Shown here one piece after another: positions 34,032-48,409 of a DNA stretch of 64,000 bases. The notes beneath the pieces are model-generated. The model did not search any database. It was not told the origin of the DNA and was given only the letters and a program-made list of their open reading frames with translations. The translations under genes and the position numbers were made by a program. Where the stretch lies: IMG/VR virus record IMGVR_UViG_3300005805_000002, positions 1 to 64,000 of that record; one strand, 5' to 3'. Each line of letters begins with the position of its first letter. Position 1 is the stretch's first letter. The DNA is from a virus (lineage: Duplodnaviria > Caudoviricetes).

Positions 34032-34158
34032 ATAGGTGGGATGTGTTTTTGATTGTTTTGTTTTGGTTACAGGGTGCTTGCTTTCCTTTAGGGCGTAGTG
34101 AGTTCGTAATTAGACATCATCTTAAACCCAATGTTCAACGGAAATTTTGTGTTTAGTG

Positions 34159-34658: not shown

Positions 34659-34671
34659 GGTAGTCGTGTGA

Positions 34672-35085: not shown

Positions 35086-35291
35086 TAGTGCTGCGCGTGT
35101 TTTAGCGGTCGGTGGATTTCTTCTTTGATATCAAGAAGCTGTCGGTTGGATTTGTATTTAGGAATGTACGTAAGTACGGAACTCTCCTCGTGACGGGAGA
35201 AAAACTTTCGTATGGGGTTGCCCGGCCAATCGACGTAATCGTGCTGGTAGTGATCATCGAGAGAGTCTCGGTCGTATTGTTGCTGGTTCAT
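35085..35291 (-). CDS. Hypothetical protein
   Basis: Translationally coupled ORF. Confidence 0.5.
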   Translation of the reverse strand: MNQQQYDRDSLDDHYQHDYVDWPGNPIRKFFSRHEESSVLTYIPKYKSNRQLLDIKEEIHRPLKHAQH

Positions 35292-35353
35292 TGAAAGGGT
35301 TGCCCGCCCCGCCTAACCGGAATCTTGGTTAAGCGGGGCAAGGCGGGTTTGGT

Positions 35354-37000
35354 TCAGTTATGCACGGCTTCCATCTGAACGGCGTGGAAGTTAACGAACT
35401 TGCCGAAGGGCATACGGTAGTTGTCCCCTCCGTACAGATACCTTTGACAAGTATTGATCCAGAGCGTGGGGATACCGGGATCCGGCGTACGCCACCAGCT
35501 CCACTGCATGTCGGAGACAACGACGATCCAGTCGTACTCGGACCTGCGGTTCTTGGCCCAGTTGAAGGCGGGCATGAGGTCGGTCGCACCGCGTCCGGCC
35601 CAGCCTTGGAACTCGGTGATCGGGAAGTCACAGGACCTGTAGTCGCGTGACGCCCGAACGGAGGTGTCGCAATGCAGCAACGTGACGGTCGACTGCGGGA
35701 ACAGCGACAGCACTTTGCCGAGATGCGTCAGGGCTTGGTTGCAGTCCGCGTCGCTCATCGAGCCGGACGTATCTACAATGAAGAGACCACGGGTCTTGCT
35801 ACGGGCGCGGCGAGCCGGAAGCAGCAGGTCCTTACGATGGCTGTGCCTGCGGGACGGCCTGTCGTATTTCCAGCCTGCGGCGTGTTGGGTCCGGAGAAAC
35901 TTCTCCAGTTCCTTGCGCCAGTTGATCGACGCGGCCAACTCGGGGTCTCCCTCGATGCGCTCCTTGTACTGGGAGATGATATCACCCAGACCAGTCGGGC
36001 TGTAGGTCGAGCTACCGAGCAGCGCTTCGAGGATGAGCTTGGCCTCGTCTTCGCGAAGCGTGACTTCTTCGGGCGCGTCTTCAATGCCGCCGCCGAAGGT
36101 CTCGGTCGGATCGGGCATGTTGGCGAAGGGGTCGTGCTCGGCGTTGGAGTCGGAGCCCGCCTTGGCGGGGTCGCCGCTCTCGGAGTCGGAGTCGGAGTCG
36201 TCAGCGTCCTCGAAGTCCGACCCGTCGAAGGGTTGGCTGTCGTTGCCTGAGCCAGAGGAATCCTCGTCGTCACCGTCCTCGTCCTTGTCGGATTCGCCGG
36301 AGCCAGAGGAGTCATCGTCTGAGTCATCGGAGTCGGAGTCGCCGACCTCGTTCTCGTCCCAGTCGTGGACGCCATCGTCATCCTCATCATCGGAGGAGCC
36401 GGGCTTATCCTTGTTGGATCGAGTCTTGGTCACTTGGGTGCCTTCCTGACCTTCCTCGCCTTCCTCGCAGGGCTCGCCGTCGACAGGTACCTCGTTGGTA
36501 GGAGGCTGAGGCGGCGGAGGCGGGTTGAGCTGCTTGAGCAGGTCGTAGTACTCCTCGGCGCTCTTGTTGTACGGGAGACCCTCGAAGGATTTGAAGCCGA
36601 CGAAGCAGCCGCCCGAGACTTTCGAGTCGATCAGCTCGGCTTGCAGTTTGACGGTGTCGCCTTGGAACGCCTCACGGTAGCCCTTGTAGAGCATACAGTT
36701 GAGCGCGAGATCGGCGGCGATGTTGTAACCCTTGGGGTTTCGTTTGCCACGGCGGTGCTGGTGATTGGACAGCACGTGACCGACCTCGTGCAGCACGATG
36801 GCCTTGGCGGCGGACAAGGACAGCTTGTCGACGAACGAGGGATTGTACGTGAGAGTCCGGCCGTTGGTCGCCATCGTGGACAAGGAGCCGGACGGCTTGA
36901 CCGACCAGCGTGACAGCACGACTGGTATGGCTATGGGTTCGAGCCGAGCGACCCAGTCGAGTGCGACTTTGATCTTTTCAGCAGAGGTAAGTTGAGTCAT
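35354..37000 (-). CDS. Metallopeptidase-vWA protein (DUF2201-like)
   Basis: TMATNG..YNPSFV..VLHEVGH..NIAADLALN; acidic D/S linker; MIDAS 'IVDTSGSMS'. Confidence 0.85.
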   Translation of the reverse strand: MTQLTSAEKIKVALDWVARLEPIAIPVVLSRWSVKPSGSLSTMATNGRTLTYNPSFVDKLSLSAAKAIVLHEVGHVLSNHQHRRGKRNPKGYNIAADLALNCMLYKGYREAFQGDTVKLQAELIDSKVSGGCFVGFKSFEGLPYNKSAEEYYDLLKQLNPPPPPQPPTNEVPVDGEPCEEGEEGQEGTQVTKTRSNKDKPGSSDDEDDDGVHDWDENEVGDSDSDDSDDDSSGSGESDKDEDGDDEDSSGSGNDSQPFDGSDFEDADDSDSDSESGDPAKAGSDSNAEHDPFANMPDPTETFGGGIEDAPEEVTLREDEAKLILEALLGSSTYSPTGLGDIISQYKERIEGDPELAASINWRKELEKFLRTQHAAGWKYDRPSRRHSHRKDLLLPARRARSKTRGLFIVDTSGSMSDADCNQALTHLGKVLSLFPQSTVTLLHCDTSVRASRDYRSCDFPITEFQGWAGRGATDLMPAFNWAKNRRSEYDWIVVVSDMQWSWWRTPDPGIPTLWINTCQRYLYGGDNYRMPFGKFVNFHAVQMEAVHN

Positions 37001-37074
37001 GGTTGGATTGTTCTAACGTGGTAGTTGGGACGATGTGTCAGGGGGCCCCCGCAAGGAGGCCCCCTGATCTTTGG

Positions 37075-38202
37075 TTAGCCGACGATGGCCTTGTAGGCAT
37101 CGAGGCCTGCGAGGCTGGGCAGCTTGGCCCCGGCCACGCGGAACCACCAAGCCACAGCCTCACGGCAGGCGGGGTTCTCGGTAGCGCAGCGGGCGAAGTA
37201 GTCAGCCACAGCCTTGGTGTGCGCCGGATTGACCTCGGGCGAGAGGTTGCGCTTGGCCTGCTCGGGGTCGAGCAAGCGGACAGCGAACGACTCACCGAGT
37301 GCGTACAGGACGCCGATCTGGTCGGCCGGAGGAGTCGGCGCGGAGGCCGGATCCTTGACGACTTTCTCGAAGGTCGGGCACTGCGAGAGGACCTCGCGGT
37401 ACGCGATGTATTCGCGGCCAGCGGTCTGACCGACCAAGCCGAAGACGATGGCGTCTCCGACCTCCGGTGTGAGCGGGGTCTGGGCCAGCACGTCGAGAGC
37501 CGCCGCAGCCCACGTGAAGGTACGAGGGTTAGGACGTTGCTGCTCGATGTACTCGTGTTTGCCGCCGCCGAAGATGTTCGGGCGGAAGCGGGCATAGCCA
37601 ACCAGAGCGGCATCAATGCCGTTGCCGTTAGCCCAGTCGATCCAGTGGTCCAAGGCGCGGGGGCCGTGGGTGTCCACGTAGAAGTGGGCCAGACGGGTAG
37701 CCGCCGCAGTGGTCAGCTCGGTCGTGCCCGTGTCGGTCGTGCCGTTGCCAGCGCAAACAATGTGCGTCAGCTTGGACAGCTTGCGGCCGTTGACGCCACG
37801 GTCGAGCAGGATCTGCAAGGCCACGTTGAGGACGTCGATGGACGTGCGGTCGACCTCGTCGAAGAACAGGATGCACTCATAGTCGTCTCCGTAGAGATCG
37901 GCCCACGGGAGCAACGAGTTGGCGAGGTAGGACAGGACCTTGCGGACCTCGCCATCGATCTCCTGATCCACGGGGTACGGGATGCCGCCGAGATCGGTGG
38001 GCTCCTTGTCCGACAGGCGGACGTCATGGAGCGGCAGGCCGAGATCGGCGGTGAGCGACTTGATCGTAGCGGACTTGGTCCAGCCGACCGGACCCCAGAT
38101 TACGGGGACCAGATCGAGTGTGGGGACCCAGCACACGGCGATGCACTGCTTGATGGTGGACAGCGGAAAAGCCGCTGCGGGGACAGGTTTATGATTTTGC
38201 AT
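37075..38202 (-). CDS. MoxR-like AAA+ ATPase
   Basis: WGPVGWTKS (variant Walker A); ILFFDEVDR (Walker B); LQILLDR; start MQNHKP after the conserved leader. Confidence 0.8.
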   Translation of the reverse strand: MQNHKPVPAAAFPLSTIKQCIAVCWVPTLDLVPVIWGPVGWTKSATIKSLTADLGLPLHDVRLSDKEPTDLGGIPYPVDQEIDGEVRKVLSYLANSLLPWADLYGDDYECILFFDEVDRTSIDVLNVALQILLDRGVNGRKLSKLTHIVCAGNGTTDTGTTELTTAAATRLAHFYVDTHGPRALDHWIDWANGNGIDAALVGYARFRPNIFGGGKHEYIEQQRPNPRTFTWAAAALDVLAQTPLTPEVGDAIVFGLVGQTAGREYIAYREVLSQCPTFEKVVKDPASAPTPPADQIGVLYALGESFAVRLLDPEQAKRNLSPEVNPAHTKAVADYFARCATENPACREAVAWWFRVAGAKLPSLAGLDAYKAIVG

Positions 38203-38285
38203 GGTGGTAGTTGTGTGGTTGTGGTGGTTGGGAAAAGGGGCCCTCCGGCTAACCGGAGATCGGGTTAACCGGAGGGCGGATCGGG

Positions 38286-38504
38286 CTAGAGCGTCGAGCC
38301 CTTGCTCGGGAAGCCGTTGACGTGATTGATGATCCACTGGCGGACCATCCCGTTGAGTTTGTCGAGCGTTTGGCGGGACACCCGAGTGAACTTGTGGTGA
38401 CGCGTCTTCTTGGCGTGGTCCAGCATGAAGGTGCGGACCTTGCTTTCGACGATGAGAGACGCGCTGATGCGCGCTACGACTTGATCGAGTTCGGATTCAG
38501 ACAT
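38286..38504 (-). CDS. Candidate bacterial-type histone-fold protein
   Basis: LIVESKVRTFM / RVSRQTLDKLNGMVRQWI / KGSTL aligns by eye with Bdellovibrio Bd0055 (LVVTSKVKKLI / TSAETIDVLSKAIEQLC / GRKTV). Confidence 0.6.
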   Translation of the reverse strand: MSESELDQVVARISASLIVESKVRTFMLDHAKKTRHHKFTRVSRQTLDKLNGMVRQWIINHVNGFPSKGSTL

Positions 38505-38533
38505 GGTGGTAGTTGTGTGGTTGTGGTTGTGGT

Positions 38534-39466
38534 TTAGGAGACCTGAGCTTTGACGGCTCCGGCCTTGAGCTTGGACAGGATGTCGCCAGCCTGCTTGGCA
38601 ATCTCCGACCGGACCTCGGTGCCCTTGTCGGTCTTCTTGTCGCGGAGGACATTGGACTGAGCGGCTTTGACGAGTCCGGCGACGAGGTCGCGGGCACGGG
38701 TCACGGCAGCGGTGATGGTGCGGTCGTTGTTGACGTTGAGCGCAGGCAGGGCCTCGACCAGTTCTTCGAGGTTGGTGACCATCGTGTCCTCGAAGCGGGC
38801 GATCTTACCGGAGTTGAACTCGGTAAGACTGCTGACGACACGGGACAGCGCGGCCTCCAGCCTCTCGACGACAGTCTTGTGCAGGTCCTTGACCTTGTCC
38901 GCGTATTCCTTGCGGGTGCTGTCCTCGATGGCAGCGCGGGCCTTGGCCGACACGTGGTTGAGGCGGATGTCGTCGGGGTGCGTGATGGCGCTCTGCTTGA
39001 TCTCGAACTTGTAGCGTTCACGCACCTCGTCCTCGGTCGGGAAACCGAGTCGGTCGAAGGCTCCGTTGAGATCGACCCGGGCTTGGTCGCGGAGTTTAGG
39101 GAGGCTCTTGCAGAGCTTGTCGACGGAGTCGTAGAACTCGGCGCGGAAGGCTTCGAGTTTCTGGACAACCGAGTCGAGCTTGGTGTTAACGACTGCGAAC
39201 GAACCCTTGCCGTCCCAGCGGAAGCCCGTGGGGAAGTCAAGGTAGCGGCGAGCCTCGGAGAGCTTCTGCTGCGGAGGCAGGCGGTCCTCCTTGGTCAGTC
39301 GCTGCACGTAGGCAGTGAAACGGTCGGAGGCAGCGTGATCGGCGCTGGCCGCGTTGGCGGCAGCTTGGTCGTCGCGTTTGCTCCACGGGAACAGCGAGCC
39401 CTCGATGCTGACGAGGGTGCAGTCACGGGCGATGTCGAATGCGTTGGTAGTTTTGTATTCAGTCAT
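38534..39466 (-). CDS. DUF3150-like protein
   Basis: Helical protein with 'FPTEDEVRERYKF'; in the usual neighbourhood of the AAA and vWA genes. Confidence 0.6.
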   Translation of the reverse strand: MTEYKTTNAFDIARDCTLVSIEGSLFPWSKRDDQAAANAASADHAASDRFTAYVQRLTKEDRLPPQQKLSEARRYLDFPTGFRWDGKGSFAVVNTKLDSVVQKLEAFRAEFYDSVDKLCKSLPKLRDQARVDLNGAFDRLGFPTEDEVRERYKFEIKQSAITHPDDIRLNHVSAKARAAIEDSTRKEYADKVKDLHKTVVERLEAALSRVVSSLTEFNSGKIARFEDTMVTNLEELVEALPALNVNNDRTITAAVTRARDLVAGLVKAAQSNVLRDKKTDKGTEVRSEIAKQAGDILSKLKAGAVKAQVS

Positions 39467-39516
39467 GGTGGTAGTTGGTTGTGTGGTTGATGGCGAACGC
39501 CGACGTCGTCTTAAAC

Positions 39517-39603
39517 CTACCGATCAAAATATGAGCGGGAGATGAACAAGGCGACGAGCAGCGAGGCCAGAAGGTAGAGAACGAAGTGGGCTTCGGGAAT
39601 CAT
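39517..39603 (-). CDS. 28-aa single-TM micropeptide
   Basis: MIPEAHFVLYLLASLLVALFISRSYFDR. Confidence 0.5.
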   Translation of the reverse strand: MIPEAHFVLYLLASLLVALFISRSYFDR

Positions 39604-39656
39604 GGCGGCAATATAGTTAGACAACTCTCGGAGCAATTCGTTCAAATTATTTTTCG

Positions 39657-40049
39657 TCAGTGTTTCCAAAGGGGCGGTTTGACGCGCAGCTTCACGGGGT
39701 AGCGGTGCTCTCCGGCACGCTCGGCGGGTCGGATGAAACAGAAGTCATACTTCTTTCCATTGTAGACATAGTTGAAGCCGCCGTGCTCGTCGTGTTCTAC
39801 ATTGACGCTGCCGTGGTTGTCGTGCTCGTTCGAGTAGAACTCCAAGACCGAGTACGGTCGCTGAGTCTTCTCATCCTTGTATCCGAGCGGTTCGACGTAG
39901 CCTGCGAAGAAGTAGACGCAGTCTTTGGTCGTGAGTTTGCTGGCGTTGCTCGCAGTCGGATCCACGTCGCAGTTGCGAAGGAAGACCATGAGCTTGTCGT
40001 CGGGATGGGGTATGTTGGTTTTGTATTTCATGGTTATTTCTCGGGCCAA
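39657..40049 (-). CDS. Hypothetical protein
   Basis: ORF within the early cluster. Confidence 0.5.
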   Translation of the reverse strand: MAREITMKYKTNIPHPDDKLMVFLRNCDVDPTASNASKLTTKDCVYFFAGYVEPLGYKDEKTQRPYSVLEFYSNEHDNHGSVNVEHDEHGGFNYVYNGKKYDFCFIRPAERAGEHRYPVKLRVKPPLWKH

Positions 40050-40324
40050 GCCGAGTAGATGGGTTTCAATCCTTTGTCATCGAAGAAGCTGACTACGCGG
40101 CCTCGGTGAGTGAGGCGACTGGCGTGGGCTCCGACTGAACGGGGTCGCACTTCACAGGTAGGGTAGCCCCTATAAAATCCCGTGAACTTGCTTTCCAATA
40201 ACACCTCGATGTTGTGCTCTTTGGCGCTACCGCAGCGGGACTTTATGTATCCCGTGCCGCTATGCTTTCCTTTCGGGTCGTCGAAGTAGACGCGTTGCAG
40301 GACGAATGTGTCTGAGAATTTCAT
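40034..40324 (-). CDS. Hypothetical protein
   Basis: Coupled ORF. Confidence 0.5.
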   Translation of the reverse strand: MKFSDTFVLQRVYFDDPKGKHSGTGYIKSRCGSAKEHNIEVLLESKFTGFYRGYPTCEVRPRSVGAHASRLTHRGRVVSFFDDKGLKPIYSAWPEK

Positions 40325-40662
40325 TAGTGTTTGATCAGATCGTGGAGCGCGTCATCGGCGCTAATGAGAGGGACATTTTCGAGTACGTAGGTGTCGTTGA
40401 CTCTTATGCCCACGAGTAAGCCGTGGGAGCCGTCGAGACACTGGGCTACTGCTCGCATTCCGCAGAGCGTGTCCTCAGCGCCCGAAAGGCCCAGACCGGA
40501 ACCGGAGTTGTAAACGGCGTTGGCTTTGGCGGCGTCTTCATAAGACGCGTAAACGTGCGGGTTCCATACCCAGAAGTTGACGTCTTCGATCTCGATAGCT
40601 CGGTCGAAAGGCTTCTGGTCAGGTGGAACCGGATAGGGAATGTGAATGTGTTGTGAGTTCAT
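40324..40662 (-). CDS. Hypothetical protein
   Basis: Preceded by the palindrome and conserved leader. Confidence 0.6.
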   Translation of the reverse strand: MNSQHIHIPYPVPPDQKPFDRAIEIEDVNFWVWNPHVYASYEDAAKANAVYNSGSGLGLSGAEDTLCGMRAVAQCLDGSHGLLVGIRVNDTYVLENVPLISADDALHDLIKH

Positions 40663-40711
40663 AATGGTAGTTGGTTGTGGTAGTTAACTTATGGGTTAAC
40701 CGGATATCCGG

Positions 40712-41302
40712 TTAAGCAGAGGGGACTTCGCAATACTTCAACAAGAAGGGGAAAAACCATTCCTCGGCTACCCTTTCAAGTTCTCGAAAGGCTTGAAGAG
40801 TCTGGTCCTGCTCAAGCGGTTCTTCATTGTGAAACGTGACGTCAATCCCGTGTATCGGGCGCTCAAGCCACGTGCCCTCGTAGCGGTCAACCATATTGGA
40901 ACGAAGGTAAACGGTGCTCGCGTAGTCGCCCTTGGCATGTTCGGTGTAAATGACCAGTGTCTGCGAGGTGCTGAGGAGGAAATCGAACGAGTGGTCTTTT
41001 CGCCACTCGTTACTGACGCTCAGATGCTTTCTGCTCTCGGTAAGCCACGTCTCCAGAGTCATCCACGCGGGGCGTCGGAAGTGCGGGTCTTTTATGTGCA
41101 GAGCGTGGTAAACCTTTTCAGCTACATCAGGTTTTAAGCGGAGATGTCGAGTATCGAGGTAGAGCTTATACACCGGACCGAATGCGACTCGAACGCGGTA
41201 ATCGCGAGCGCGTTGCATTTTGTCCTTCTGTCGCTGCTCTTCATCTTGTTGCTGTTTCGCGGAGACGAGGCGAGCAAGAGTGGGGTTAGTGGATTCTTTC
41301 AT
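40712..41302 (-). CDS. Hypothetical protein
   Basis: Flanked by two perfect palindromes; its stop lies inside one of them. Confidence 0.6.
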   Translation of the reverse strand: MKESTNPTLARLVSAKQQQDEEQRQKDKMQRARDYRVRVAFGPVYKLYLDTRHLRLKPDVAEKVYHALHIKDPHFRRPAWMTLETWLTESRKHLSVSNEWRKDHSFDFLLSTSQTLVIYTEHAKGDYASTVYLRSNMVDRYEGTWLERPIHGIDVTFHNEEPLEQDQTLQAFRELERVAEEWFFPFLLKYCEVPSA

Positions 41303-41337
41303 AGTGGTAGTTGTGTGGTTGTTAACCGGATATCCGG

Positions 41338-41553
41338 TTAAAGTTCGTAGGAAGCGTCGAGGTTATCGACAAACTCCCGCATGGATGAGGTGAGATCTGC
41401 TTCGGAGATGGCAACGTGCATGGCACGTATACCTTCGCCGTCCGGTGTCTTGTATAAACAGACGACTCGGAAGTTGGTGAGCTGTAGACCAAGGGCCAGC
41501 ATTCTCATGCCGACCCAGTCACAGATGGCGGTGTAAGTGCGTTCGAGGATCAT
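41338..41553 (-). CDS. Hypothetical protein
   Basis: Stop lies inside the palindrome at 41322. Confidence 0.55.
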   Translation of the reverse strand: MILERTYTAICDWVGMRMLALGLQLTNFRVVCLYKTPDGEGIRAMHVAISEADLTSSMREFVDNLDASYEL

Positions 41554-41708
41554 TCTTCGTTTTCGGCGGGGTAGACGACGAGCTTGGCCTGATTGCCTTC
41601 GCCTATGGCGAAATCCAGTCCATACTCATACCAGTTGTAGTCTTGCACGATGATCTCCGACTCGGGGTCGTGCTTCTGTAAGTGATCGATGAGTTCTTTA
41701 ACTTTCAT
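41550..41708 (-). CDS. Small hypothetical protein (52 aa, absent from the ORF track)
   Basis: MKVKELIDHLQKHDPESEIIV..., a common phage N-terminal motif. Confidence 0.6.
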   Translation of the reverse strand: MKVKELIDHLQKHDPESEIIVQDYNWYEYGLDFAIGEGNQAKLVVYPAENEE

Positions 41709-41710
41709 GG

Positions 41711-41956
41711 TCAGTTGATGGTTGCGTGGAAGTAGACGCCGCGTTCATCGTTCCGGTCTTGGAGTTGAATGCTCCGAGCTTTGCCGGAGATGACGCAGCG
41801 GGGTTGCGACTTTCGGTCGCGGGTTGCGGTTGGGACGTTGCAGGACAGACTCTCGACAAAGAGGCAGGCCCCCTTGTAGTGAATCGACAGCACGTTGCGG
41901 CCCCACTTTTGTGATAGAGGCTTGTTGTAGTGGTAGAAGAATGTGAATGGTTTCAT
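41711..41956 (-). CDS. Conserved phage hypothetical protein
   Basis: FFYHYNKP...SIHYKGAC...QPRCVISG. Confidence 0.6.
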   Translation of the reverse strand: MKPFTFFYHYNKPLSQKWGRNVLSIHYKGACLFVESLSCNVPTATRDRKSQPRCVISGKARSIQLQDRNDERGVYFHATIN

Positions 41957-42291
41957 TGGTCTTCGAGTTTGGAATTGATGAGGGCGCGAACGTCCGGTTC
42001 GATCTTGGCGAAAGCCAATCGCAGGCTTTTGGGCACTTGATCGGGTGCTGGTCCGTCGTCGAAGGTGTCAATGCGGTTGCGGGAATACCGGATGCATCCT
42101 TCCTCGAAGGGACCAACGAACGGTGAGCGGCGGGCATCTTCGCGATAAACGCGGAGCAAATACTCCTCGTCGGTCGGCATGACCGCGTATATGTCGCAGT
42201 CAATGTAACCGTCGCAGTTGATGATGGCCCAGTCGAAGCGGATGCCAGTGCCCGGATCGGTGAATGTTGTTCTGTTTTTCATTGCGGTCAT
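41953..42291 (-). CDS. Hypothetical protein
   Basis: Likely start MTAMKNR, with an ATGA overlap. Confidence 0.5.
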   Translation of the reverse strand: MTAMKNRTTFTDPGTGIRFDWAIINCDGYIDCDIYAVMPTDEEYLLRVYREDARRSPFVGPFEEGCIRYSRNRIDTFDDGPAPDQVPKSLRLAFAKIEPDVRALINSKLEDQ

Positions 42292-42524
42292 AGGGCTCCT
42301 CTTTCTCCTCCGGTCGGCGGGTTGATGAGTCCGGCTTCGATCATGCGGACAGCCGTGCGTCCGTAGAATCCCTGCAACGTCCATGCCATTCCCGTATCTA
42401 CGAGGTATTGGAATAGGCGGAGGGTCCCTTCGGTGCTGAGGCTGCCTTGCTCGAAGTCGATGAGTTCGGTGGTGAGATCGAATGATTCGGTGGTGTTCAC
42501 GGGTGGTAAGGAATCGATGTGCAT
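42288..42524 (-). CDS. Conserved phage hypothetical protein (FQYLVDTG.AW.LQG.YGR family)
   Basis: Recognisable motif. Confidence 0.7.
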   Translation of the reverse strand: MHIDSLPPVNTTESFDLTTELIDFEQGSLSTEGTLRLFQYLVDTGMAWTLQGFYGRTAVRMIEAGLINPPTGGERGAL

Positions 42525-42530
42525 GGTGTG

Positions 42531-43007
42531 TTAAGCGAGTGCGCGTTGCAGGCCAGCGTGCAGGACGCCGCCATACCACGCGGGGTTCTTTTCTTTGAGG
42601 ATGGTGAGGGGAGCTTTACCCGCGTCTAACTCGGCGAAGTATTGCTCCGGTGTGTGACTGGCGATCAGCTCTTTGCGGAACTTCGCCAGCGTGAAAGGTC
42701 CCCCGTGTTTGAAACGGGCGACGAACTTGCGGTCGGGTCCGAAGAGCAGGTATTGCCCCTCTCGGAACAGTTGATCTTTGGTGAACTTGGTCATGGTAGT
42801 TGGTGGTTTGGTGACGTAGAGAAGCGGGGGATACTCGTTCCGCTTCTCCAACTTGGTGGTCAGATGAGTGCCCCTGCAATGGGGGCAGGAGTAGACTCCG
42901 TATTGCTTGTTGCGCTTCCGGCGGAAGCGTTCCGCGTGTTCTTCGTAATCGGACCAGCCAAGATTGATTTTGCCTCGGCATCCTCGTTCCAAGCTGGGTG
43001 GTTTCAT
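42531..43007 (-). CDS. Hypothetical protein: Zn-ribbon N-terminal part fused to a second unit starting at ATG 42794
   Basis: YSCPHCRGTHLT in the N-terminal part; internal leader AAACCACCAACTACC-ATG. Confidence 0.55.
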   Translation of the reverse strand: MKPPSLERGCRGKINLGWSDYEEHAERFRRKRNKQYGVYSCPHCRGTHLTTKLEKRNEYPPLLYVTKPPTTMTKFTKDQLFREGQYLLFGPDRKFVARFKHGGPFTLAKFRKELIASHTPEQYFAELDAGKAPLTILKEKNPAWYGGVLHAGLQRALA

Positions 43008-43014
43008 GGATGCC

Positions 43015-43197
43015 TTAACCGAGATTCGGGTTAGGCTCGGCGAGCTTGATGGCCGCGCGGAGTTCCTTGATGGTAATCCACGCGGGGTGTTCGCGGTCTC
43101 CGCTCGGCTCGAACTCGGGCATGATACCTTCGAGATCGGCGAGCGCGCATTTGGCAGCGTCGAGCAGCATTTTGAATGATCGAGTGTGTTTTTTCAT
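43015..43197 (-). CDS. Hypothetical protein
   Basis: The last codons (PNPNLG*) are the palindrome. Confidence 0.55.
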   Translation of the reverse strand: MKKHTRSFKMLLDAAKCALADLEGIMPEFEPSGDREHPAWITIKELRAAIKLAEPNPNLG

Positions 43198-43544
43198 TGG
43201 GTGATGGTTGAGGTTTCGTAAGGGACGCAGTCGTTATCCAAGCCGAACTTGGACAGCATCTCGTCCGAGCAGTATCCGTTGTCATTGGGCGCGCAGTTGG
43301 GATGCCCGTAAATGCAGGAGCAGGGATGCTCGGCGACCATTTGCAGGTAACGCTTTGCGTATGCCTGTCGCTTGCGGTCGCAGATCTCGACGAGATCCTT
43401 CTGGGTAATACGGGTCCCGCATACTGCGGTGTAATCGATGAGCTGGTCGGGGAAGACCGGACTCGTGACACGCTTGCCGTCGAAGAGGACTTCAAACTCC
43501 TCTCCGGCGATGTTGAGGATGATGGGTATGGGATCGATGGTCAT
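43194..43544 (-). CDS. Hypothetical protein
   Basis: Likely start MTIDPIP; C-terminal CSC..C..C. Confidence 0.5.
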   Translation of the reverse strand: MTIDPIPIILNIAGEEFEVLFDGKRVTSPVFPDQLIDYTAVCGTRITQKDLVEICDRKRQAYAKRYLQMVAEHPCSCIYGHPNCAPNDNGYCSDEMLSKFGLDNDCVPYETSTITQ

Positions 43545-43546
43545 GG

Positions 43547-44116
43547 TTAATTCCTTCCGGACATTTGCTTCCACACACCGAGATCGAACTCGGCGAACGT
43601 GAGATGGGGGAACTTGGTCCGCACCATGCGCTTCGCCTTCTCCTCGATCTTGAGGTAGGTCGGCGACAGCTTATTCGGCGTGGTCGCAGGGATGCCCCTC
43701 ATGCGGCACTCCTCGCGGAGATAGCGCAGCATATGGACGTCGAGGACCACGAGTTCCTCGTCCGGTCGGCTATGCAGCAGGAACATCCGCGCGGTCTTGT
43801 GCCCAATCCCGTGGATGGACAGCAGGTCGTGCAAGGTGCAAGTGCGGAGGTTCAAGTTAAGAACCCCGGCCACAGCGGGAGCGTTCTTGTTGTAAGGTGC
43901 GAGATGCCACTCTTCGAGAATCTCGGCAATGCTCATGCCGTGATACGGAGAGCGGAACGCATCGAACAGCGATCCGTTGGTGCGGGCGATGAGTCGATTG
44001 ACCAGTCGCGCAGTGGAGTCGGAGTTGTGTCCGGCCACGGCGATGCAGAAGAGCATGAACTCTTCCAGTTCCTCGTCGCTGCGGTGGTAGTTGGTGACTT
44101 GTGTGGGTTCGATCAT
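43547..44116 (-). CDS. HhH-GPD superfamily DNA glycosylase
   Basis: LLSIHGIGHKTARMFLL (HhH) plus VVLDVHMLR. Confidence 0.8.
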   Translation of the reverse strand: MIEPTQVTNYHRSDEELEEFMLFCIAVAGHNSDSTARLVNRLIARTNGSLFDAFRSPYHGMSIAEILEEWHLAPYNKNAPAVAGVLNLNLRTCTLHDLLSIHGIGHKTARMFLLHSRPDEELVVLDVHMLRYLREECRMRGIPATTPNKLSPTYLKIEEKAKRMVRTKFPHLTFAEFDLGVWKQMSGRN

Positions 44117-44150
44117 GGGTGGTGTGGTAGTTGGTTAACCGGAATTCCGG

Positions 44151-44660
44151 TTAAGCAGCCTCCCGCCAGTCGTGGGGTCGGCTGTAGAATCCGAACGAGG
44201 GATCGTCCTCGCTCGGGGTGAAGGTGGCGGTGAAGGTGACACGCTTGCCGTCCTCGGTGGCCGCGCGGGAGGGTTTGGATCCCCAGACCTTGGCCCCGTC
44301 CGGCAATTGGATGAGGCACTTGATCGAGTCGCCGAACTTGGTCGCAACGAGCTTCTGCTTGAGGATCACGCCCGTGACCTCGGTCCGGCCGAGCGGGGCG
44401 CGGATGCCAGCGGCAACCCGTTTGGCCCGTTCCTCGGCGCGCTCGTCGGCCCACTTCATTTTCTGAAGCGACTCCTTGTGGAGTTTGATAGCGAAGGCTG
44501 CCTGTTTTGGAGTCAACGACTTATACCGGACGAGCTTGACGGCCATGTCCTGTAGGATGTTGACGCCCCATGAGATGCGGTCCCACGCGGGGTGCGACTG
44601 CAATGACGAGTCCGCGCCAAAGTGGAGCGCGGCATTCAACTCGGAGTTATTGGTATCCAT
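44151..44660 (-). CDS. Conserved phage protein with OB-like C-terminus
   Basis: LTPKQ...EVTGVILKQK..KFG..K...RVTFTATF...GFYSRP. Confidence 0.65.
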   Translation of the reverse strand: MDTNNSELNAALHFGADSSLQSHPAWDRISWGVNILQDMAVKLVRYKSLTPKQAAFAIKLHKESLQKMKWADERAEERAKRVAAGIRAPLGRTEVTGVILKQKLVATKFGDSIKCLIQLPDGAKVWGSKPSRAATEDGKRVTFTATFTPSEDDPSFGFYSRPHDWREAA

Positions 44661-44707
44661 AGTGGTAGTTGGTGGTGGTGGTGAAAAAGCCTCTATCACG
44701 TTTCCGG

Positions 44708-44797
44708 TCAGTCGGTTACGAGGCAGATGGCGATCCCGAGCAGGGTGAGTCCGCAGAAGATTTCCAGTGCGGTCTGGAGAATGTCGTAGGGTATCAT
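44708..44797 (-). CDS. 29-aa single-TM micropeptide
   Basis: MIPYDILQTALEIFCGLTLLGIAICLVTD. Confidence 0.5.
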   Translation of the reverse strand: MIPYDILQTALEIFCGLTLLGIAICLVTD

Positions 44798-44907
44798 ACT
44801 GATGCGAGTATATGTAGACGTCTTAAACCTTGGGTTGTTCAATCTTGGGTGCTTGGAATCCTCGGCCCCCGAACGGATGGGACGTAGCGGGAACGAGGTG
44901 ATGGGAC

Positions 44908-45096
44908 CTAACGGATGGACTGCGGGTCGTCGGTCTTGCGGATCTCGACTTTCGTCGTGGGATCCCAGTTCGCCTTGACGCGAAGCCAAAGCTCCGCCTC
45001 GGACGAGGCCGACTCATGCGTCCGGTGGTTCGTTGAGGAGACGCGGCGTTTGTCGCGCGTCACCACGTAGACGAACTCCTTTTCGTAGTTGGGCAT
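44908..45096 (-). CDS. Hypothetical protein
   Basis: Preceded by the palindrome and leader. Confidence 0.6.
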   Translation of the reverse strand: MPNYEKEFVYVVTRDKRRVSSTNHRTHESASSEAELWLRVKANWDPTTKVEIRKTDDPQSIR

Positions 45097-45128
45097 GGTG
45101 GTAGTTGGTCGGGTTGTTGCGGTGGTGG

Positions 45129-45299
45129 TTAACCGGAAATCGGGTTAGCGGAGAGCTTCACGTTGTGAAACTCCTCGAACAGGCGTTGATACTCCTTGGC
45201 CTTCTCGTCGGTATTGATCGGGCCGAGAGCGATGATTGCGTTCAAGTATTGCCGGAAGCTCGGGTCGTCGTAGCTGGGTGGTGCAGGATTGTAAGGCAT
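45129..45299 (-). CDS. Small hypothetical protein (56 aa)
   Basis: MPYNPAPP...ANPISG*; ends in the palindrome. Confidence 0.5.
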   Translation of the reverse strand: MPYNPAPPSYDDPSFRQYLNAIIALGPINTDEKAKEYQRLFEEFHNVKLSANPISG

Positions 45300-45349
45300 A
45301 AGAAAGGGGCGGGGCTTTTTCGGCTAACCCCAAGCCGCGTTGCGGTTGG

Positions 45350-45550
45350 TTAGATGAAGTCGTCGTGCGAGACTTCAGCGGAGGGACGCCATTCGTTGAA
45401 ACGATTGCGGTAGGCGTTGAACGCGTCGAAGCACTGGTCGAGGGCCTTGGGATCGTAGGCCGTGAGAAACTTGCGTATCTCCGGCGACAGGACGATGACC
45501 GAGACGGCCTTGTTCAGTTGTTCGAGCAGCAGTTGTGTTGCGTTTTCCAT
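45350..45550 (-). CDS. Hypothetical protein
   Basis: Preceded by the palindrome and leader. Confidence 0.6.
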   Translation of the reverse strand: MENATQLLLEQLNKAVSVIVLSPEIRKFLTAYDPKALDQCFDAFNAYRNRFNEWRPSAEVSHDDFI

Positions 45551-45647
45551 GCGGTAGTTGGTGTTGTTGTGTTGGTTAACCGGAGATCCGGTTAGGAAAG
45601 GGGCATCCCTTGTAGGCGTGTAATGACGCCTCGTTAGTTGTCAGAGC

Positions 45648-45805
45648 AGACGGCGAGGGGAATCGAACCCCCATCTCCCATAACTCCATCTCGCGGTGAT
45701 CAGCCGAGAGTCATCGTCTGTCTGCGACCGAGATCACGCGTAATCCAGTGCAGGTCGGCGATGAATTCATGGAGGGGCGTGTTACCAGTTGAACACTACG
45801 CCGCC
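45648..45805 (-). ncRNA. tRNA-like RNA with a ~95-nt structured insert replacing the anticodon arm
   Basis: Acceptor GGCGGCG/CGCCGTC; T8A9; D arm GTGT-TCAACTGGTA-ACAC; T arm GGGGG-TTCGATT-CCCCT; no encoded CCA. Confidence 0.7.
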
Positions 45806-45958
45806 ATCGTTGATCGATTTCCCTCTGACCTCTGGGATGAGTGGGGCTTTGTTGCCTGACCCCAAGGCAGGGACCGCTAACGCGTGATCCCTATTACGGA
45901 CAATCTGGTGACCCCGATTGACAGGGGGCCATTCGGAATTCGCGAATGGCGAAAGTGG

Positions 45959-46384
45959 TTAGCCCCAGCAGAGCCCGCCGAAGTCGTCGGGCGAGAATCC
46001 GGCGGGGAGTTCGACTCCCTGCAACAAGAGGATGTTCCGGCAGAAGTCAATATCGTCGCAGGACGCGCAGTAGATGTCGTCCCCATCGACCATGTCGGGG
46101 TGCTTCTTGAGCAAATCCCAGACAGGTCCGCGCAGCTTGCCCCAGCCGAAGGTGAGGAACGAGTCGAGGGAAGCGAGAGCCTCGACGCGGTGGACCTCCT
46201 TGTAGAGCCGATACGAGAGCCGCTCGCAGCGGAGGAAGGCGGACTCGTCGGTCGGAAGTTGACTGGCGAGGTTGGAGTAACGGCCTTGAAGTGCCGTCAG
46301 CCGGGCGTAAGTGCCGGGATGGACTTGAGCCAGACGCTCAAGGATTTCGGGGTTGGTGGTTTTCGGATACAGGCGTGTTCCCAT
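45959..46384 (-). CDS. Hypothetical protein
   Basis: Preceded by the palindrome and leader. Confidence 0.6.
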   Translation of the reverse strand: MGTRLYPKTTNPEILERLAQVHPGTYARLTALQGRYSNLASQLPTDESAFLRCERLSYRLYKEVHRVEALASLDSFLTFGWGKLRGPVWDLLKKHPDMVDGDDIYCASCDDIDFCRNILLLQGVELPAGFSPDDFGGLCWG

Positions 46385-46425
46385 AGGTGTTGGTGTGGTT
46401 GTGGTTAGATTAACCGGAGATCCGG

Positions 46426-46527
46426 TTAACGGAGAGCGAGGAGAAGGCAGGGAGCGACTCCGACAATTGCGGCCAAGATATACAGGGCCAAAAGCCAGAG
46501 GGGCTCGCGTTGGTTTTGATTTTTCAT
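46426..46527 (-). CDS. 33-aa single-TM micropeptide
   Basis: MKNQNQREPLWLLALYILAAIVGVAPCLLLALR; stop lies within the palindrome. Confidence 0.55.
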   Translation of the reverse strand: MKNQNQREPLWLLALYILAAIVGVAPCLLLALR

Positions 46528-46596
46528 GGAGTTGGGGGAGGTGTAAGCCTCGCTTCTACTCCCCGTCACGGGCACGGGGAGCAGGTGCGATTCCAA

Positions 46597-46683
46597 TCAC
46601 CAGTCGAGCAGGCTACGAATGAATCCGTAGATCAGCAGGAATGATCCGATCAGAGTCATGGAGACCAAGATGTCTGGACTCAT
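46597..46683 (-). CDS. 28-aa single-TM micropeptide
   Basis: MSPDILVSMTLIGSFLLIYGFIRSLLDW. Confidence 0.5.
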   Translation of the reverse strand: MSPDILVSMTLIGSFLLIYGFIRSLLDW

Positions 46684-46690
46684 GGCTGCC

Positions 46691-46831
46691 TTACTCGTTG
46701 AAGTCGTCGGCCGAGATCGGGGCCTCGACCCAGACCCAGTGCAGCGGGCTATGGTCGTCCTCGGTGAAGGACGGGGCCACGTTGACACGGGCGGGGACTT
46801 GATCGACGGGTTGGTTGTAGTTGTCTTCCAT
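46691..46831 (-). CDS. 46-aa acidic peptide
   Basis: MEDNYNQPVDQ...; preceded by the palindrome and leader. Confidence 0.55.
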   Translation of the reverse strand: MEDNYNQPVDQVPARVNVAPSFTEDDHSPLHWVWVEAPISADDFNE

Positions 46832-46965
46832 AGTGGTAGTTGGATGGTTGTTATGGTTGTGGTTGTGTTAACCGGAGATCCGGTTAACGAGAGCGGAGTC
46901 ACTCCAACACCTGCACCAGTGGTTGGCAGTCCCACTGGTGAGGTGCTGACGCGAACCCGTTCCGG

Positions 46966-47433
46966 TTAGGACTGGGCCTTGGCCTGCTTGGTCAGCCAAG
47001 CGCGGCGGAGAGCAGAGACCGCGTCCTCGCCAGCCTCGGCCTCGGCGAGAGCGATGAGCTTCTCGATGACGGGGGCGAGCTTTGCGTCCTTCTCTTTCTT
47101 GCTCTTGCTCTCGGACTTCTGGGCACGTTCGCGGAGGCCCAGAGCAACGAACGCATCGGAGGCACGGCGTTCGGACTCGGCCTTGGCCTGCTTCTCGGTC
47201 TTGCCGTCAGCGAGGTAGGCCTCGACCAGCGCGGCTTTGACTTGCGCCTTGAGGTCCTTGATTGCGGCTTTGCGGTCCGCGCCAGAGGCGGCGATCTCGC
47301 TGGAGATGCGCGCCTTGATTGCGTCTTTCAACGCGGCGAGGTTGGAGTTCGCCACGGCGAACGTGACGATGTCGGTGATGACGTCCTCGGTGAAGGAGAG
47401 GACGCTGCGGAGGTTGGCAATGATGTTGCTCAT
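46966..47433 (-). CDS. Ala/Lys-rich helical protein, first gene of the early block
   Basis: Strong C/G third-position codon bias; preceded by the palindrome and leader. Confidence 0.7.
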   Translation of the reverse strand: MSNIIANLRSVLSFTEDVITDIVTFAVANSNLAALKDAIKARISSEIAASGADRKAAIKDLKAQVKAALVEAYLADGKTEKQAKAESERRASDAFVALGLRERAQKSESKSKKEKDAKLAPVIEKLIALAEAEAGEDAVSALRRAWLTKQAKAQS

Positions 47434-47489
47434 AGTGGTAGTTGTGGTTAGTCGCTGGATCACGATGCTTAACCGGAAACTCGGTTAGC

Positions 47490-48380
47490 CACGGGTCGGT
47501 CGTCGTCAGCACTCGGAGACCAATCCGAATGGACAGGGGAGATGAATCCGCAATGGGTAGTTCACGATCCCCTGTTTCGACCTTTATTCAGCAGTCAGCG
47601 CACGTTCAGCAGAGGAAGCGATTGGCGAGTGGGATGCGGACAAGTGGAGCCGCAAAGTTATAAGTGCCGTTCGTATCTGCTCGTCCCGATTCGGTGTTCT
47701 ACCGACATACCTCGAAAGGCATGACCGCAAACCAATGCGGTGGCAGGCTTGACTACCTGCTGCTCCGTTACCGGACCGAGCGCACGCCCCGTTTGAGGCG
47801 TTGCTGGTCTATGGTCGGAGAGGACTGCAACTGACTTCAGTCTTGCGCCCGTTTGTAATCACGGGCATCCGTTCGCGCTACGTTTCCTCACGCTACAAGG
47901 CAATCCACAAGGGGACGAACCCCTTGGCCGGAACTGGTCTGCACCAGTGTCGCGTCCGGTCTGCCAACCCCGCCCTTACGCACCTCTACTCGGGGACTCC
48001 AAAGCCTAACTCCCATCCCGCTGGAGACGATCCAGCGCGGCGAGAGGTCAGCAAACCCCTTTCGGGCCTCGATCAGTGTTGGCCTGATTTCGCGTCTGCT
48101 CGCGCACCTTGAGGGGTCTCGTCTCCCGTCCACGATCCTCGCCGCGCGGCCCTTCATCAGTAGCCCCTATGCGGTTCAACGGATCATCCAACTGGTGGAC
48201 TTCGTTTCGATACCTCCCCTCGCCTTGCGGTCGAGTCTGAATGTCAAAGAACTGAAGGCTGCCTCGATCCCTTCTGCTGTCGGTCGGGAGTCGATCCCGT
48301 CTCGCGCTTCTGGTCTCTCGGTCTGCTACCTATTGGGGACCTCGGAGGAATTAGGTTGCCAACAGAGTAAGAAAGGGTAT
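47490..48380 (-). ncRNA. Putative large structured non-coding RNA or genome-terminus region
   Basis: No credible gene; more than 10 hairpins; GNRA/UUCG loops on the - strand; 10-bp long-range helix 48035-48044/48138-48147. Confidence 0.45.
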
Positions 48381-48409
48381 GTTGGCTAACCGGAACACTG
48401 GTTTACTGG

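Follow-up and report, generated by a model that had tools for sequence, protein, structure and literature searches.

A palindrome and a C/A-only leader as a putative intercistronic expression signal in the early operon of an uncultured lake phage

The early genes of an uncultured lake phage are separated by copies of a 20-bp palindrome which, together with a leader composed only of C and A, may form a portable intercistronic expression signal acting mainly at the RNA level, a reading to which we give about an even chance. Overall, the evidence speaks more for a signal formed by an RNA hairpin than for a repressor site or a site dedicated to recombination. The window analysed covers 64,000 nucleotides of the 74,189-bp genome. 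A pattern scan of this window gave 11 exact matches to YTAACC-N8-GGTTAR, versus 0.00 expected from shuffles, starting at 35313, 38249, 40696, 41322, 43015, 44135, 45129, 45576, 46410, 46868, and 47469. Together with three degenerate copies, at 48386-48405, 46950, and 48914, they span 35.3-48.9 kb, in the gaps between leftward (minus-strand) genes, and all exact copies fall within one transcription unit. An earlier note on this DNA had counted 12 copies confined to 35.3-48.4 kb. That count is recovered with the copy at 48386-48405 as the twelfth, and the perfect copies that it quoted are correct; a scan of the rest of the genome found no further copies. The degenerate copy at 48914..48933 (strand not assigned) lies at the 3' end of a divergent HTH gene.

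The sequences show or strongly indicate a single leftward operon divided into translational units, which starts beside the HTH gene at the promoter-like bipartite motif CTAATT-N13-CAATAGG (48329..48354, minus strand); the same motif also stands at the operon head in the related phages L059, L064, and L066. Within the long leader at its 5' end, the operon has a predicted type II hammerhead ribozyme (47491..47582, minus strand; Rfam RF02276, 30.7 bits). The same model matches at the same syntenic place in L059 (38.5 bits), L064 (33.3), and L066 (29.6), with only the L059 match exceeding the gathering score of 37. The predicted cut, after GUC near 47532, would create a 5' end about 43 nt away from the first palindrome. 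This first gene-linked copy (47469..47488, minus strand) comes shortly after the hammerhead and precedes the conserved first early gene (155 aa, ATG 47433), whose protein gave no informative fold match. A tRNA is present inside the L059 operon and, like the conserved hammerhead, fits a setting of RNA processing.

Each unit opens, as is shown or strongly indicated, with a sense-strand RNA stem-loop of 8 bp and a 4-nt loop, after which an unstructured, near-G-free leader runs to the start codon. In agreement with the earlier observation that a conserved leader and an ATG follow most copies, a start codon lies 5-46 nt after 9 of the 11 exact copies, and most of these gaps are C/A-only leaders with the end AACTACCACYATG (also given as AACTACCAC). 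An example is the perfect palindrome at 46868..46887, followed by a 36-nt G-free leader (46832..46867) with the end CCAACTACCACT before ATG 46831; these and the following features are on the minus strand. Equivalent leaders follow the perfect palindromes at 46410..46429 (25 nt, G-free, 46385-46409, ATG 46384) and 41322..41341 (19 nt, G-free, 41303-41321, ATG 41302), the copy with a GAATTC centre at 44135..44154 (18 nt, G-free, 44117-44134, ATG 44116), and the copies at 45576..45595 (25 nt, 45551-45575, ATG 45550), 45129..45148 (45097-45128), and 47469 (47434-47468). After the perfect palindrome at 40696..40715, the leader measures 33 nt and leads to ATG 40662. The degenerate palindrome at 43015..43034 precedes the 7-nt leader GGCATCC and ATG 43007, an arrangement, including its stop codon, that is also kept in L059 and L060. 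Junctions with the leader and no palindrome occur before ATG 39466, 38504, and 44660. The G content of the leaders is 10% versus a background of 25%, with many lacking G over 12-38 nt, and no promoter-like hexamer pair was found in the palindrome-to-start-codon intervals.

The stop codons attributed to the palindromes were all recovered. The proximal TAA is the stop at 40712 (196-aa gene), 41338 (71-aa gene), 44151 (169-aa gene), and 46426, and at 46966 in the half-degenerate copy at 46950..46969 (minus strand, CTAACCGGAAC arm only), where it ends the 155-aa first early gene. The distal TAA is the stop at 43015 (60-aa gene) and 45129 (56-aa gene), to which 45576 can be added. Only the TTAACC variant of the arm supplies stops, however, and relatives of the TTATCC type have mostly lost this feature; judging from the sequences compared, the in-palindrome stop codon is a by-product of a TAA-bearing arm.

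One indication of an RNA role comes from the borders of the conserved DUF3150/MoxR/VWA module, where the stem-loop is shown or strongly indicated to be lengthened by GC-rich flanks into a hairpin of 15-17 bp. The copy at 35313..35332 (minus strand), downstream of the DUF2201/VWA gene, caps such a hairpin (~35301-35344; RNA fold -33.4 kcal/mol, z -5.9) and is part of the covariation alignment. That at 38249..38268 (minus strand), between a 72-aa gene and the MoxR-like gene, caps another (~38237-38280; -31 kcal/mol, z -7.3), and its orthologues in relatives keep the stem with different flank sequences. The palindromes around these genes cap longer stems, in which the flanking sequences vary and remain complementary. 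In the alignment of extended copies (n=11), 91.4% of cells are paired, versus 38-51% in slid registers, and nine pairs have changes on both sides. The covariation score of 0.529, versus 0.19, was matched by 0/500 shuffles; because the phages are related, not every cell represents an independent event. The flanks contain 15 G-U pairs when read as the sense strand versus 2 as the antisense strand, and a C-A closing pair occurs at 0/13 extended sites versus 17/54 simple sites. The earlier argument that non-compensatory inner changes point to a DNA site thus fails with the relatives included, the flanks being compensatory and the wobble pairs on the sense strand.

Simple copies also fold as RNA, at -10 to -12 kcal/mol (z -3 to -5), for example -10.4 kcal/mol (z -3.1) at 40696 and -11.7 kcal/mol (z -4.8) at 46410. 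The degenerate copy at 48386..48405 is on the plus strand, 4 nt 5' of the HTH gene ATG and just after a predicted -10 box, and it folds well only on this HTH-sense strand (-13.3 kcal/mol, z -2.7, versus -4.5 kcal/mol, z 0.2, on the minus strand); the HTH-proximal copy of L065, its site sequence read by eye, shows the same strand preference. In the simple copies, inner pairs (positions 7 and 8) vary without compensation, and A-C is commoner than G-U on the sense strand, indicating that the stem is not the sole constraint. No U-tract follows any hairpin, which leaves classical intrinsic termination unsupported.

The palindrome is a family-wide element. The motif scan of genome and relatives that had been proposed found it in six related uncultured phages, at early-gene junctions and followed by C/A leaders, with 4 (G004) to ~15 (L066) copies each. 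The arms are TAACC in L059 and L060, TATCC in L064, L065, and L066, and TGTCC in G004, being uniform within each phage and switching in concert between phages. Within any phage, core positions 2-6 and 14-19 show nearly no deviation. The downstream half is near-invariant, as had been claimed, in this phage (10 vs 3 deviations) and in L059 (10 vs 4), but not across the family (40 vs 30, p=0.28). The positions before the MoxR gene and beside the HTH gene are kept despite protein identities of 45-60% between phages, the latter in L059, L064, L065, and L066. The motif was not a repeat in any of ~186,000 species genomes searched.

The identical core, perfect dyad, copy at a regulator gene start, and concerted change are what a dimeric DNA-binding protein would also give. 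The copies may then be duplex operators for a dimeric phage regulator, such as the divergent 174-aa HTH protein (48410..48934, plus strand; weak Pfam HTH_3 and HTH_31 matches), a candidate regulator conserved across the family. In the manner of stoperators, occupied copies would keep the accessory and early operon silent in the lysogen or act as roadblocks in it, and the regulator gene would be under its own control; the earlier note had proposed a multi-operator or stoperator array that silences the host-takeover region in the lysogen. The hairpins would then be a by-product of transcribed palindromes, some co-opted as terminator tips. The two-fold symmetry, the invariant 5+5 core with variable centre and flanks, the single arm type per phage, and the family-wide position of one copy at +1 of the predicted HTH-gene promoter are consistent with such sites, as is an integrase-like gene, which suggests that the phage may be temperate. 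The non-compensatory inner substitutions of simple copies point the same way, and Pope et al. reasoned likewise for ESAS repeats (PMC3203893). However, the separation of the half-sites varies between N6, N7, and N8 across the phages, and between N7 and N8 even within L066, a change that preserves the stem and a loop of 4-5 nt but would rotate the half-sites on duplex DNA. A duplex site also leaves the compensatory flanking stems and sense-strand wobble pairs unexplained, and the copy by the operon promoter sits ~30 nt 5' of the promoter-like motif, a poor place for repression. An alignment of the HTH proteins across the family gave no clear covariation with arm type: the recognition helix is not cleanly sorted, the HTH protein of L060 (TAACC) is the most divergent from that of the window, and that of L069 (TATCC) is 61% identical to it. 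We consider operators rather unlikely.

The second proposal of the earlier note was that the palindromes are minimal recombination sites that let genes be shuffled as cassettes, possibly by the phage tyrosine recombinase. Such site-specific sites would resemble integron attC/attI or tyrosine-recombinase cores, and promoterless cassettes would enter, leave, and change order at them behind one promoter. As in integron arrays, a divergent gene and a single promoter precede promoterless units of one orientation with palindromes between them, and several indels are exactly bounded by palindromes or leaders. Gene swaps between relatives often break at the repeats. Two indels between L064 and L066, which also differ in gene order, are each delimited exactly by two copies. 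A 237-bp unit, the 56-aa gene with the 45129 copy, is missing from L059. Homology with L059 stops 3 nt past the 44135 palindrome, where a gene replacement begins, and a block of homology with it starts 8 nt upstream of the 45576 copy. In contigs from other runs, ATG 41956 stands behind the leader at 44123 (with short sides of 22-30 nt), and some indels or replacements end at the leader rather than the palindrome. Many other breakpoints lie at palindrome-free gene ends (e.g., 46691 and 45953), and while 32/215 HSP ends fall near palindromes versus 12 expected at random, ~10/16 L064 junctions carry a copy, so that this enrichment is not above the gene-junction expectation. Gene content therefore breaks at palindromes in several cases, with no excess over junctions in general.

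Nothing indicates a tyrosine-recombinase reaction. The central spacers differ from copy to copy and many are symmetric, features that would prevent such an exchange or leave its direction random, and comparison of the relatives revealed no inversions. Integron attC sites are 57-141 bp long and imperfect, their structure but not their sequence is conserved, and a neighbouring IntI acts on them, whereas these palindromes are 20 bp and near-identical, with a translation leader in each unit and no recombinase alongside; the neighbour is the HTH protein, and the integrase-like gene, just under its Pfam cut-off, is 14 kb away. Homologous or microhomology recombination between repeats gives the same outcomes (compare a microhomology deletion in L068), and the repeat-bounded indels fit ordinary homologous exchange between repeats of 30-50 nt. 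Dedicated recombination sites thus appear very improbable.

The range of copy numbers, and junctions reduced to the leader or a solo TAACC remnant, would suit a selfish or neutral REP- or MITE-like linker with no dedicated function, spread by recombination and harmless in intergenic gaps. Strict placement and orientation relative to start codons, a core invariant in at least 60 copies, and the conserved pre-MoxR and HTH-adjacent positions speak against it, while compensatory flank evolution indicates selection. No transposase-like partner was found, and the species-genome search noted above gave no repeat. We regard this as the least likely of the explanations considered, with hardly any weight.

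The nearest analogue known is the set of SAS/ESAS repeats in Cluster K mycobacteriophages, described in 2011 (PMC3203893) and surveyed in 188 genomes (PMC12699233). SAS are short conserved sequences that adjoin the start codons of some genes, restricted to the non-structural half and to a single orientation. An inverted repeat, its spacer short and variable, precedes about half of them; the repeat consensus differs by sub-lineage, and the function of these elements is unknown (PMC3203893, PMC12699233). The start-codon-abutting element with an inverted repeat, the single orientation, and the lineage-specific consensus are shared, while the phages and repeat sequences are unrelated. SAS has a Shine-Dalgarno-like GGAG, whereas the leader here lacks G. 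The arms of ESAS are imperfect and 17 bp long, with an RNA stem unsupported according to its authors (PMC3203893), whereas the arms here are 8 bp and near-perfect, with compensatory change in extended copies. Cluster A stoperators (L5, Bxb1) likewise occur in many copies in intergenic gaps, often over stop codons, with a consensus particular to each phage lineage, but they are asymmetric 13-bp sites for a monomeric repressor, 20-30 genome-wide, oriented with transcription (PMC6550527, PMC9283540). The palindromes here are symmetric, are restricted to one 13-kb operon, and show evidence of sense-strand folding.

The conserved inverted repeats (CIRs) of Streptomyces phage phiC31 are duplex operators bound by repressor isoforms, beside phage-specific promoters, and resemble the palindromes in their recurrence at numerous sites across a temperate phage's early region. 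RNase III sites in the T7 early region are intercistronic processing signals of early transcripts, again repeated structured RNA between genes of one long early transcript; the simple copies have only 8 bp, less than a classical RNase III substrate needs. The same likeness holds for hammerhead ribozymes that flank genes in prophages and are proposed to cut the transcript into gene-length mRNAs (PMC3088659). The operon here has its own predicted hammerhead; the simple copies are not ribozymes.

As an RNA-level expression signal, the hairpins would divide the polycistronic RNA into segments and make it more stable, serving as barriers at 3' ends, marks for processing, or partial terminators. Those with extended stems may be terminators; in L064 and L066, the promoter-like motif is repeated directly after the extended pre-MoxR hairpin. 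The G-free leader, which cannot pair with itself and contains no start codon, could be a landing pad on which ribosomes load independently of a Shine-Dalgarno sequence. The invariance of the 5+5 core in each phage and its concerted change between phages make a sequence-specific reader probable, which would probably recognise the base of the stem. As a side effect, the repeat units would provide short homologies at gene borders between relatives, through which genes may be gained, lost, and reordered as repeat-bounded units.

It is clear that the palindrome YTAACC-N8-GGTTAR is a genuine repeated element, given that 11 exact copies are found against none in shuffled sequences, with further degenerate copies at 46950, 48386 and 48914. 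A whole-genome motif scan places the 11-14 copies at 35.3-48.9 kb and none in the rest of the genome; the earlier note's observation of an element restricted to the early region is thus confirmed, and it extends to a phage family. On the sense strand, each unit runs from the end of the upstream gene through TTAACCGG-NNNN-CCGGTTAA and a leader of C and A to the ATG, the leader usually closing with AACTACCAC(Y). The stop codons that had been assigned to the palindrome do sit within it. Internal stops are expected from tight packing, however, because TAA is present in two of the three frames of the element, which directly adjoins coding sequence, and the proximal TAA is absent in relatives with TTATCC-type arms, so that the supply of stop codons is not a conserved property. 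Exact-motif scans of viral, one-genome-per-species and metagenome collections returned single chance matches only, plus one contig (L016), and Rfam has no family for the palindrome itself. This 2.8-kb contig of a Blastocatellia (Acidobacteriota) MAG is near-identical to window 46.8-48.4 kb; its binning points to the host only weakly, if at all, and is not taken as host evidence.

The two ends of the 74,189-bp contig that contains the window overlap and, therefore, it represents a complete phage genome, circular or circularly permuted. The structural genes run rightward (0-31 kb), while the replication genes (62 to 50 kb) and the palindrome region (48.4 to 34 kb) run leftward, the sole rightward gene between these two blocks being that of a 174-aa HTH protein (48410-48934, plus strand). 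The sense strand of the operon (34000-48000) is C-rich and G-poor, with a plus-strand GC skew of about +0.12 to +0.18 compared with about 0 in the structural half. In every relative the operon ends with a conserved trio encoding a DUF3150 protein, a MoxR-like AAA ATPase and a DUF2201 metallopeptidase-VWA protein (35354-39466, minus strand, in the window). Outside this trio the region is hypervariable, and no other part of it is strongly conserved. The conserved 155-aa first protein of the operon has no HUH motif, and its predicted fold consists of helices only (pLDDT 75), without a match in the PDB at E<=0.001. The curated phage collection holds no close relative and gave no nucleotide match by megablast, its best matches to the DNA polymerase being 22-32% identical; in the distant polymerase relatives L002-L004 the palindrome motif is not above control. 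Near-identical DNA is present in lake-water metagenomes, with diverged variants in other lake and marine runs.

Relatives were found from the MoxR-like protein and the 155-aa protein. The latter is 91% identical to that of the window in L059, 62% in L060/L061, 54% in L066-L068, 53% in L069, 52% in L062-L064 and 45% in L065, and the 66-kb G004 has about 66% identity in MoxR. All of them share the operon layout, with 4-15 junction copies of the 20-bp palindrome followed by C/A leaders, which often carry CCAACTACC before the ATG. The arm is TTAACCGG in the window, L059 and L060, TTATCCGC or CTATCCGG in L062-L069 and a variant contig of run X7, and TTGTCCG in G004. Inside each phage, core positions 2-6 and 14-19 are almost without deviation, and variation falls on the flanks, the four central nucleotides and positions 1, 7-8 and 13. 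The nearly invariant downstream half noticed earlier is seen in the window and L059 but does not extend to the family (40 versus 30 deviations, p=0.28). The recognition helix of the HTH protein was considered as a tracker of arm type, and clean covariation is absent.

In every phage, the copies around the DUF3150, MoxR-like and DUF2201/VWA genes lie within longer GC-rich stems, which in the window are those at 38249 and 35313. The sequence of the flanks of these extended stems varies by site and by phage while their complementarity is kept. In an alignment of 11 extended sites, 91.4% of the cells are paired and both sides have changed in 9 of 17 pairs, with a covariation score of 0.529 versus 0.19 when shuffled (none of 500 shuffles reaches the observed value); registers that were slid give only 38-51% pairing. 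Non-compensatory inner substitutions had been taken as a sign of a DNA site. They are indeed uncompensated in the simple copies, which have the 8-bp stem only, but the flanks of the extended stems are compensated. The strand also matters, since G-U cells in the flanks and closing pair number 15 on the sense strand versus 2 on the antisense, and C-A as the closing pair is seen in 17 of 54 simple copies versus none of 13 extended copies. Given that the wobble-pair cells are not all independent events, we rate this strand evidence as moderate. At the HTH-adjacent copy of the window, the HTH-sense strand folds at -13.3 kcal/mol (z -2.7) and the opposite strand at -4.5 (z 0.2); at the corresponding site of L065, as we read its sequence, the HTH-sense strand pairs with two G-U wobbles where the opposite strand has two mismatches. 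We conclude that the element forms an RNA structure kept by selection, and its sequence appears to be read by some factor, acting on RNA, DNA or both. The reading that fits best, to which we give about an even chance, is that of an RNA-level punctuation signal made of hairpin plus leader, whose repeats double as crossover points.

The main rival is that the palindromes form an array of DNA operators. The uncompensated inner-pair changes of the simple copies agree with it, an invariant symmetric core with lineage-specific variants is also expected from a dimeric DNA-binding protein, and the HTH-adjacent copy sits on the predicted +1 of the HTH gene promoter. Nonetheless, most phages have N8 between the half-sites, while G004 and the X7 variant have N6 and a single L066 site has N7. 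Such differences would distort a duplex dimer site, and a stem with a 4-5-nt loop is maintained at all of these spacings. An operator array is considered unlikely.

Gene-content differences coincide with palindromes in four clear cases. Two indels that separate the close pair L064/L066 end exactly at a palindrome on each side, with one copy left in the other genome, namely an 878-bp segment with a two-gene unit and a 232-bp non-coding unit, which in L068 amounts to 19 nt after a microhomology deletion. A 237-bp unit of one gene and its palindrome is found only in the window when compared with L059, and the HhH gene of the window (44116-43547) stands in place of two other genes in L059, the replacement beginning 3 nt past palindrome 44135. 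Other breakpoints lie elsewhere, at the palindrome-free gene ends 46691 and 45953. In the comparison of nine pairs of genomes, the 215 homology-block ends include 32 that come within 25 nt of the centre of a palindrome, compared with 12 expected at random; given that about 10 of the 16 junctions of L064 have a palindrome, this enrichment is no higher than gene junctions alone give. L062, L063 and L064 differ from one another only at 100-N scaffold gaps, and these differences were left out of the breakpoint analysis. Two small genes stand in reversed order in L064 and L066, and fragmentary contigs from four other runs contain a joint of 44123 to 41956 that, with sides of only 22-30 nt, is only a hint.

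Dedicated recombination sites would account for the exact boundaries, but the breaks at palindrome-free gene ends and the lack of an excess over gene junctions make this explanation very improbable. The pattern fits homologous exchange at the palindrome-plus-leader repeats together with selection for intact junctions, and it neither requires nor excludes a dedicated recombinase. The genome has only one integrase-like gene (62811-63893), which scores 26.3 bits against a cut-off of 27.1. Integron attC arrays have an adjacent IntI-type tyrosine recombinase and an attI site, and the attC sites are long imperfect palindromes (R''-L''/L'-R') with conserved structure rather than sequence. The palindrome operon resembles such arrays in layout, but the nature of the sites differs, given that they are 20 bp long and near-identical within a genome, and the divergent neighbor of the array is the HTH gene instead of a recombinase gene.

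On the side of the start codon, 12 leftward starts at 37.0-47.4 kb, and none in the structural half, have AACTACCAC, exact or with one mismatch, directly next to them or no more than 18 nt away, and a palindrome stands upstream of 9 of about 13 leaders. With stem extensions included, the leaders contain 10% G versus 25% in the background, and G is missing altogether from 18 leaders of 5-36 nt. RNA made of C and A only cannot pair with itself and cannot contain ATG, GTG or TTG. The leader has no Shine-Dalgarno match and no GGAG, and since GGAG-type sites are present at some late genes of the same phage, it is a feature of this operon and not merely a habit of the host. We infer a role for it in translation start. 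Some leaders resemble microsatellites, such as (AC)n in G004 (66086-66140) and (CAACAC)n in L065 (14446-14472 and 15650-15697), which means that leader length can drift by slippage and still remain G-free. The leader was also considered as a -10 box for leaderless mRNAs, an idea abandoned given that the T lies at varying distances from the ATG. Its perfect 11-nt complement GTGGTAGTTGG is unique, at 58055-58065 (minus strand), and lies across the putative TTG start codon of the DNA polymerase gene; five relatives lack it at that place, and an anti-leader RNA was discarded as this match is probably due to chance.

No sigma-70-type hexamer pair was found between any palindrome and its start codon, which means that the units are co-transcribed. 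A promoter-like bipartite motif unlike the sigma-70 consensus, CTAATT-N13-CAATARG, is found at the head of the operon in the window (48329-48354, minus strand), L059, L064 and L066, on the operon strand only. It occurs again directly after the extended pre-MoxR hairpin in L064 and L066. Its coordinates are 3120 and 9951 in L064, 9209 and 15835 in L066 and 15396 in L060. Given this order of hairpin and then promoter, I read the extended hairpins as putative terminators or strong 3'-end structures. An intrinsic terminator consists of a GC-rich stem-loop and a U-tract. The hairpins lack a U-tract and have C/A-rich 3' flanks, with a TTTT run only at 38249, 4 nt past the stem, so that none of the extended ones is a classical intrinsic terminator, and no palindrome was among the matches of the terminator scan. 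The palindromes share their intercistronic position with the RNase III sites of phage early mRNAs, but their stems of 8 bp (simple) or 15-17 bp (extended) compare with about two turns of double-stranded RNA in those sites. The structural block contains a single ORF of 4081 aa (17023-29268, plus strand) that matches only two uncharacterised families, DUF7178 and phrog_3170. Such a large virion protein led us to consider N4-like hairpin promoters for a virion RNA polymerase, which were rejected because it has no match to a polymerase family or signature and the hairpins favor the non-template strand.

The hammerhead ribozyme has a core of CUGAUGA, GAAA and GUC with three stems. A type II hammerhead (RF02276, gathering score 37) is predicted at 47491-47582 (minus strand, 30.7 bits) and at syntenic positions in L059 (2079-2151, 38.5 bits), L064 (3812-3907, 33.3) and L066 (9851-9941, 29.6), so that L059 alone exceeds the Rfam threshold and the other three fall slightly short of it, with a full-model match in each. 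It lies in the long untranslated leader of the operon, directly upstream of the first gene-linked palindrome, and in the window within an ORF-poor stretch of about 890 nt. Hammerheads have been proposed to cut long phage transcripts into gene-length mRNAs (Perreault et al., PMC3088659). Other RNA features were seen in the same operons. L059, the closest relative, carries a canonical tRNA gene (3138-3209, 65 bits, anticodon loop CAU), where the content of the window differs, and a 95-bp non-coding block of the window (45859-45953) is 94.7% identical to L059 between flanking genes of 76-85% and may be a conserved small RNA. The units at 4440-4651 in L064 and 10484-10800 in L060, the latter with a T-arm-like GGTTCAAATC, lie between two palindromes without a C/A leader or a credible ORF, which suggests that palindromes may also flank non-coding RNAs.

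The closest match in grammar is the SAS/ESAS system of Cluster K mycobacteriophages, start-linked motifs with upstream inverted repeats that have been known since 2011 (PMC3203893) and whose function was unresolved in the literature as of 2025 (PMC12699233). The SAS consensus GGGATAGGAGCCC, of an actinobacteriophage lineage, includes the ribosome-binding site, and about half of the SAS have upstream inverted repeats whose spacer is short and variable and whose consensus depends on the sub-lineage (PMC3203893). Like SAS, the leader is a conserved short sequence that adjoins the starts of some non-structural genes and keeps a single orientation, and like ESAS, the palindromes are inverted repeats upstream of part of the leaders, with arms TAACC, TATCC or TGTCC by lineage. 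The two systems are nonetheless unrelated in sequence and host; SAS contains a Shine-Dalgarno sequence whereas the leader is G-free, and the palindromes show RNA-type covariation whereas the ESAS authors found none. Given the leader without GGAG, the missing nucleotide match in the phage collection and the distant polymerase, the present element is an analogue and not a member, and the grammar is found separately in uncultured aquatic phages of an unrelated family. Stoperators of Cluster A mycobacteriophages are asymmetric 13-bp sites in 20-30 copies genome-wide, oriented with transcription, and bound by the immunity repressor as a monomer, which blocks elongation (PMC6550527). Their intergenic, stop-overlapping placement is shared by the palindromes, which are instead symmetric, 20 bp long and restricted to the early region. 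REP elements with RAYT occur in hundreds of copies in host chromosomes with an associated HUH transposase. Membership in this class was rejected, given that the one-genome-per-species scan gave chance matches and the fragment of this same phage, and that the 155-aa gene has no HUH motif.

It is possible, though doubtful, that the hairpin core is an address tag for a putative phage-encoded reader of specific RNA hairpins. Such a reader would be an endonuclease or a translational/antitermination regulator and would place the whole accessory operon under post-transcriptional control, with TAACC, TATCC and TGTCC as the tags of the different lineages. With a separate tag in each lineage, the tag, the G-free leader and the reader would together make a private plug-and-play expression standard; any gene that came to lie between two tags would immediately be expressed and placed under regulation, in an RNA-level counterpart of the integron cassette. 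Compared with SAS/ESAS, the present family is more tractable through its RNA-pointing compensatory changes and strand-specific wobbles, its leader free of Shine-Dalgarno sequence and its lineage-specific arm variants. If hairpin plus leader is a self-contained expression adaptor, it would serve as a compact and portable intercistronic part in hosts not dependent on Shine-Dalgarno pairing, and would explain how genes in hypervariable accessory regions can be swapped freely while their expression is kept.
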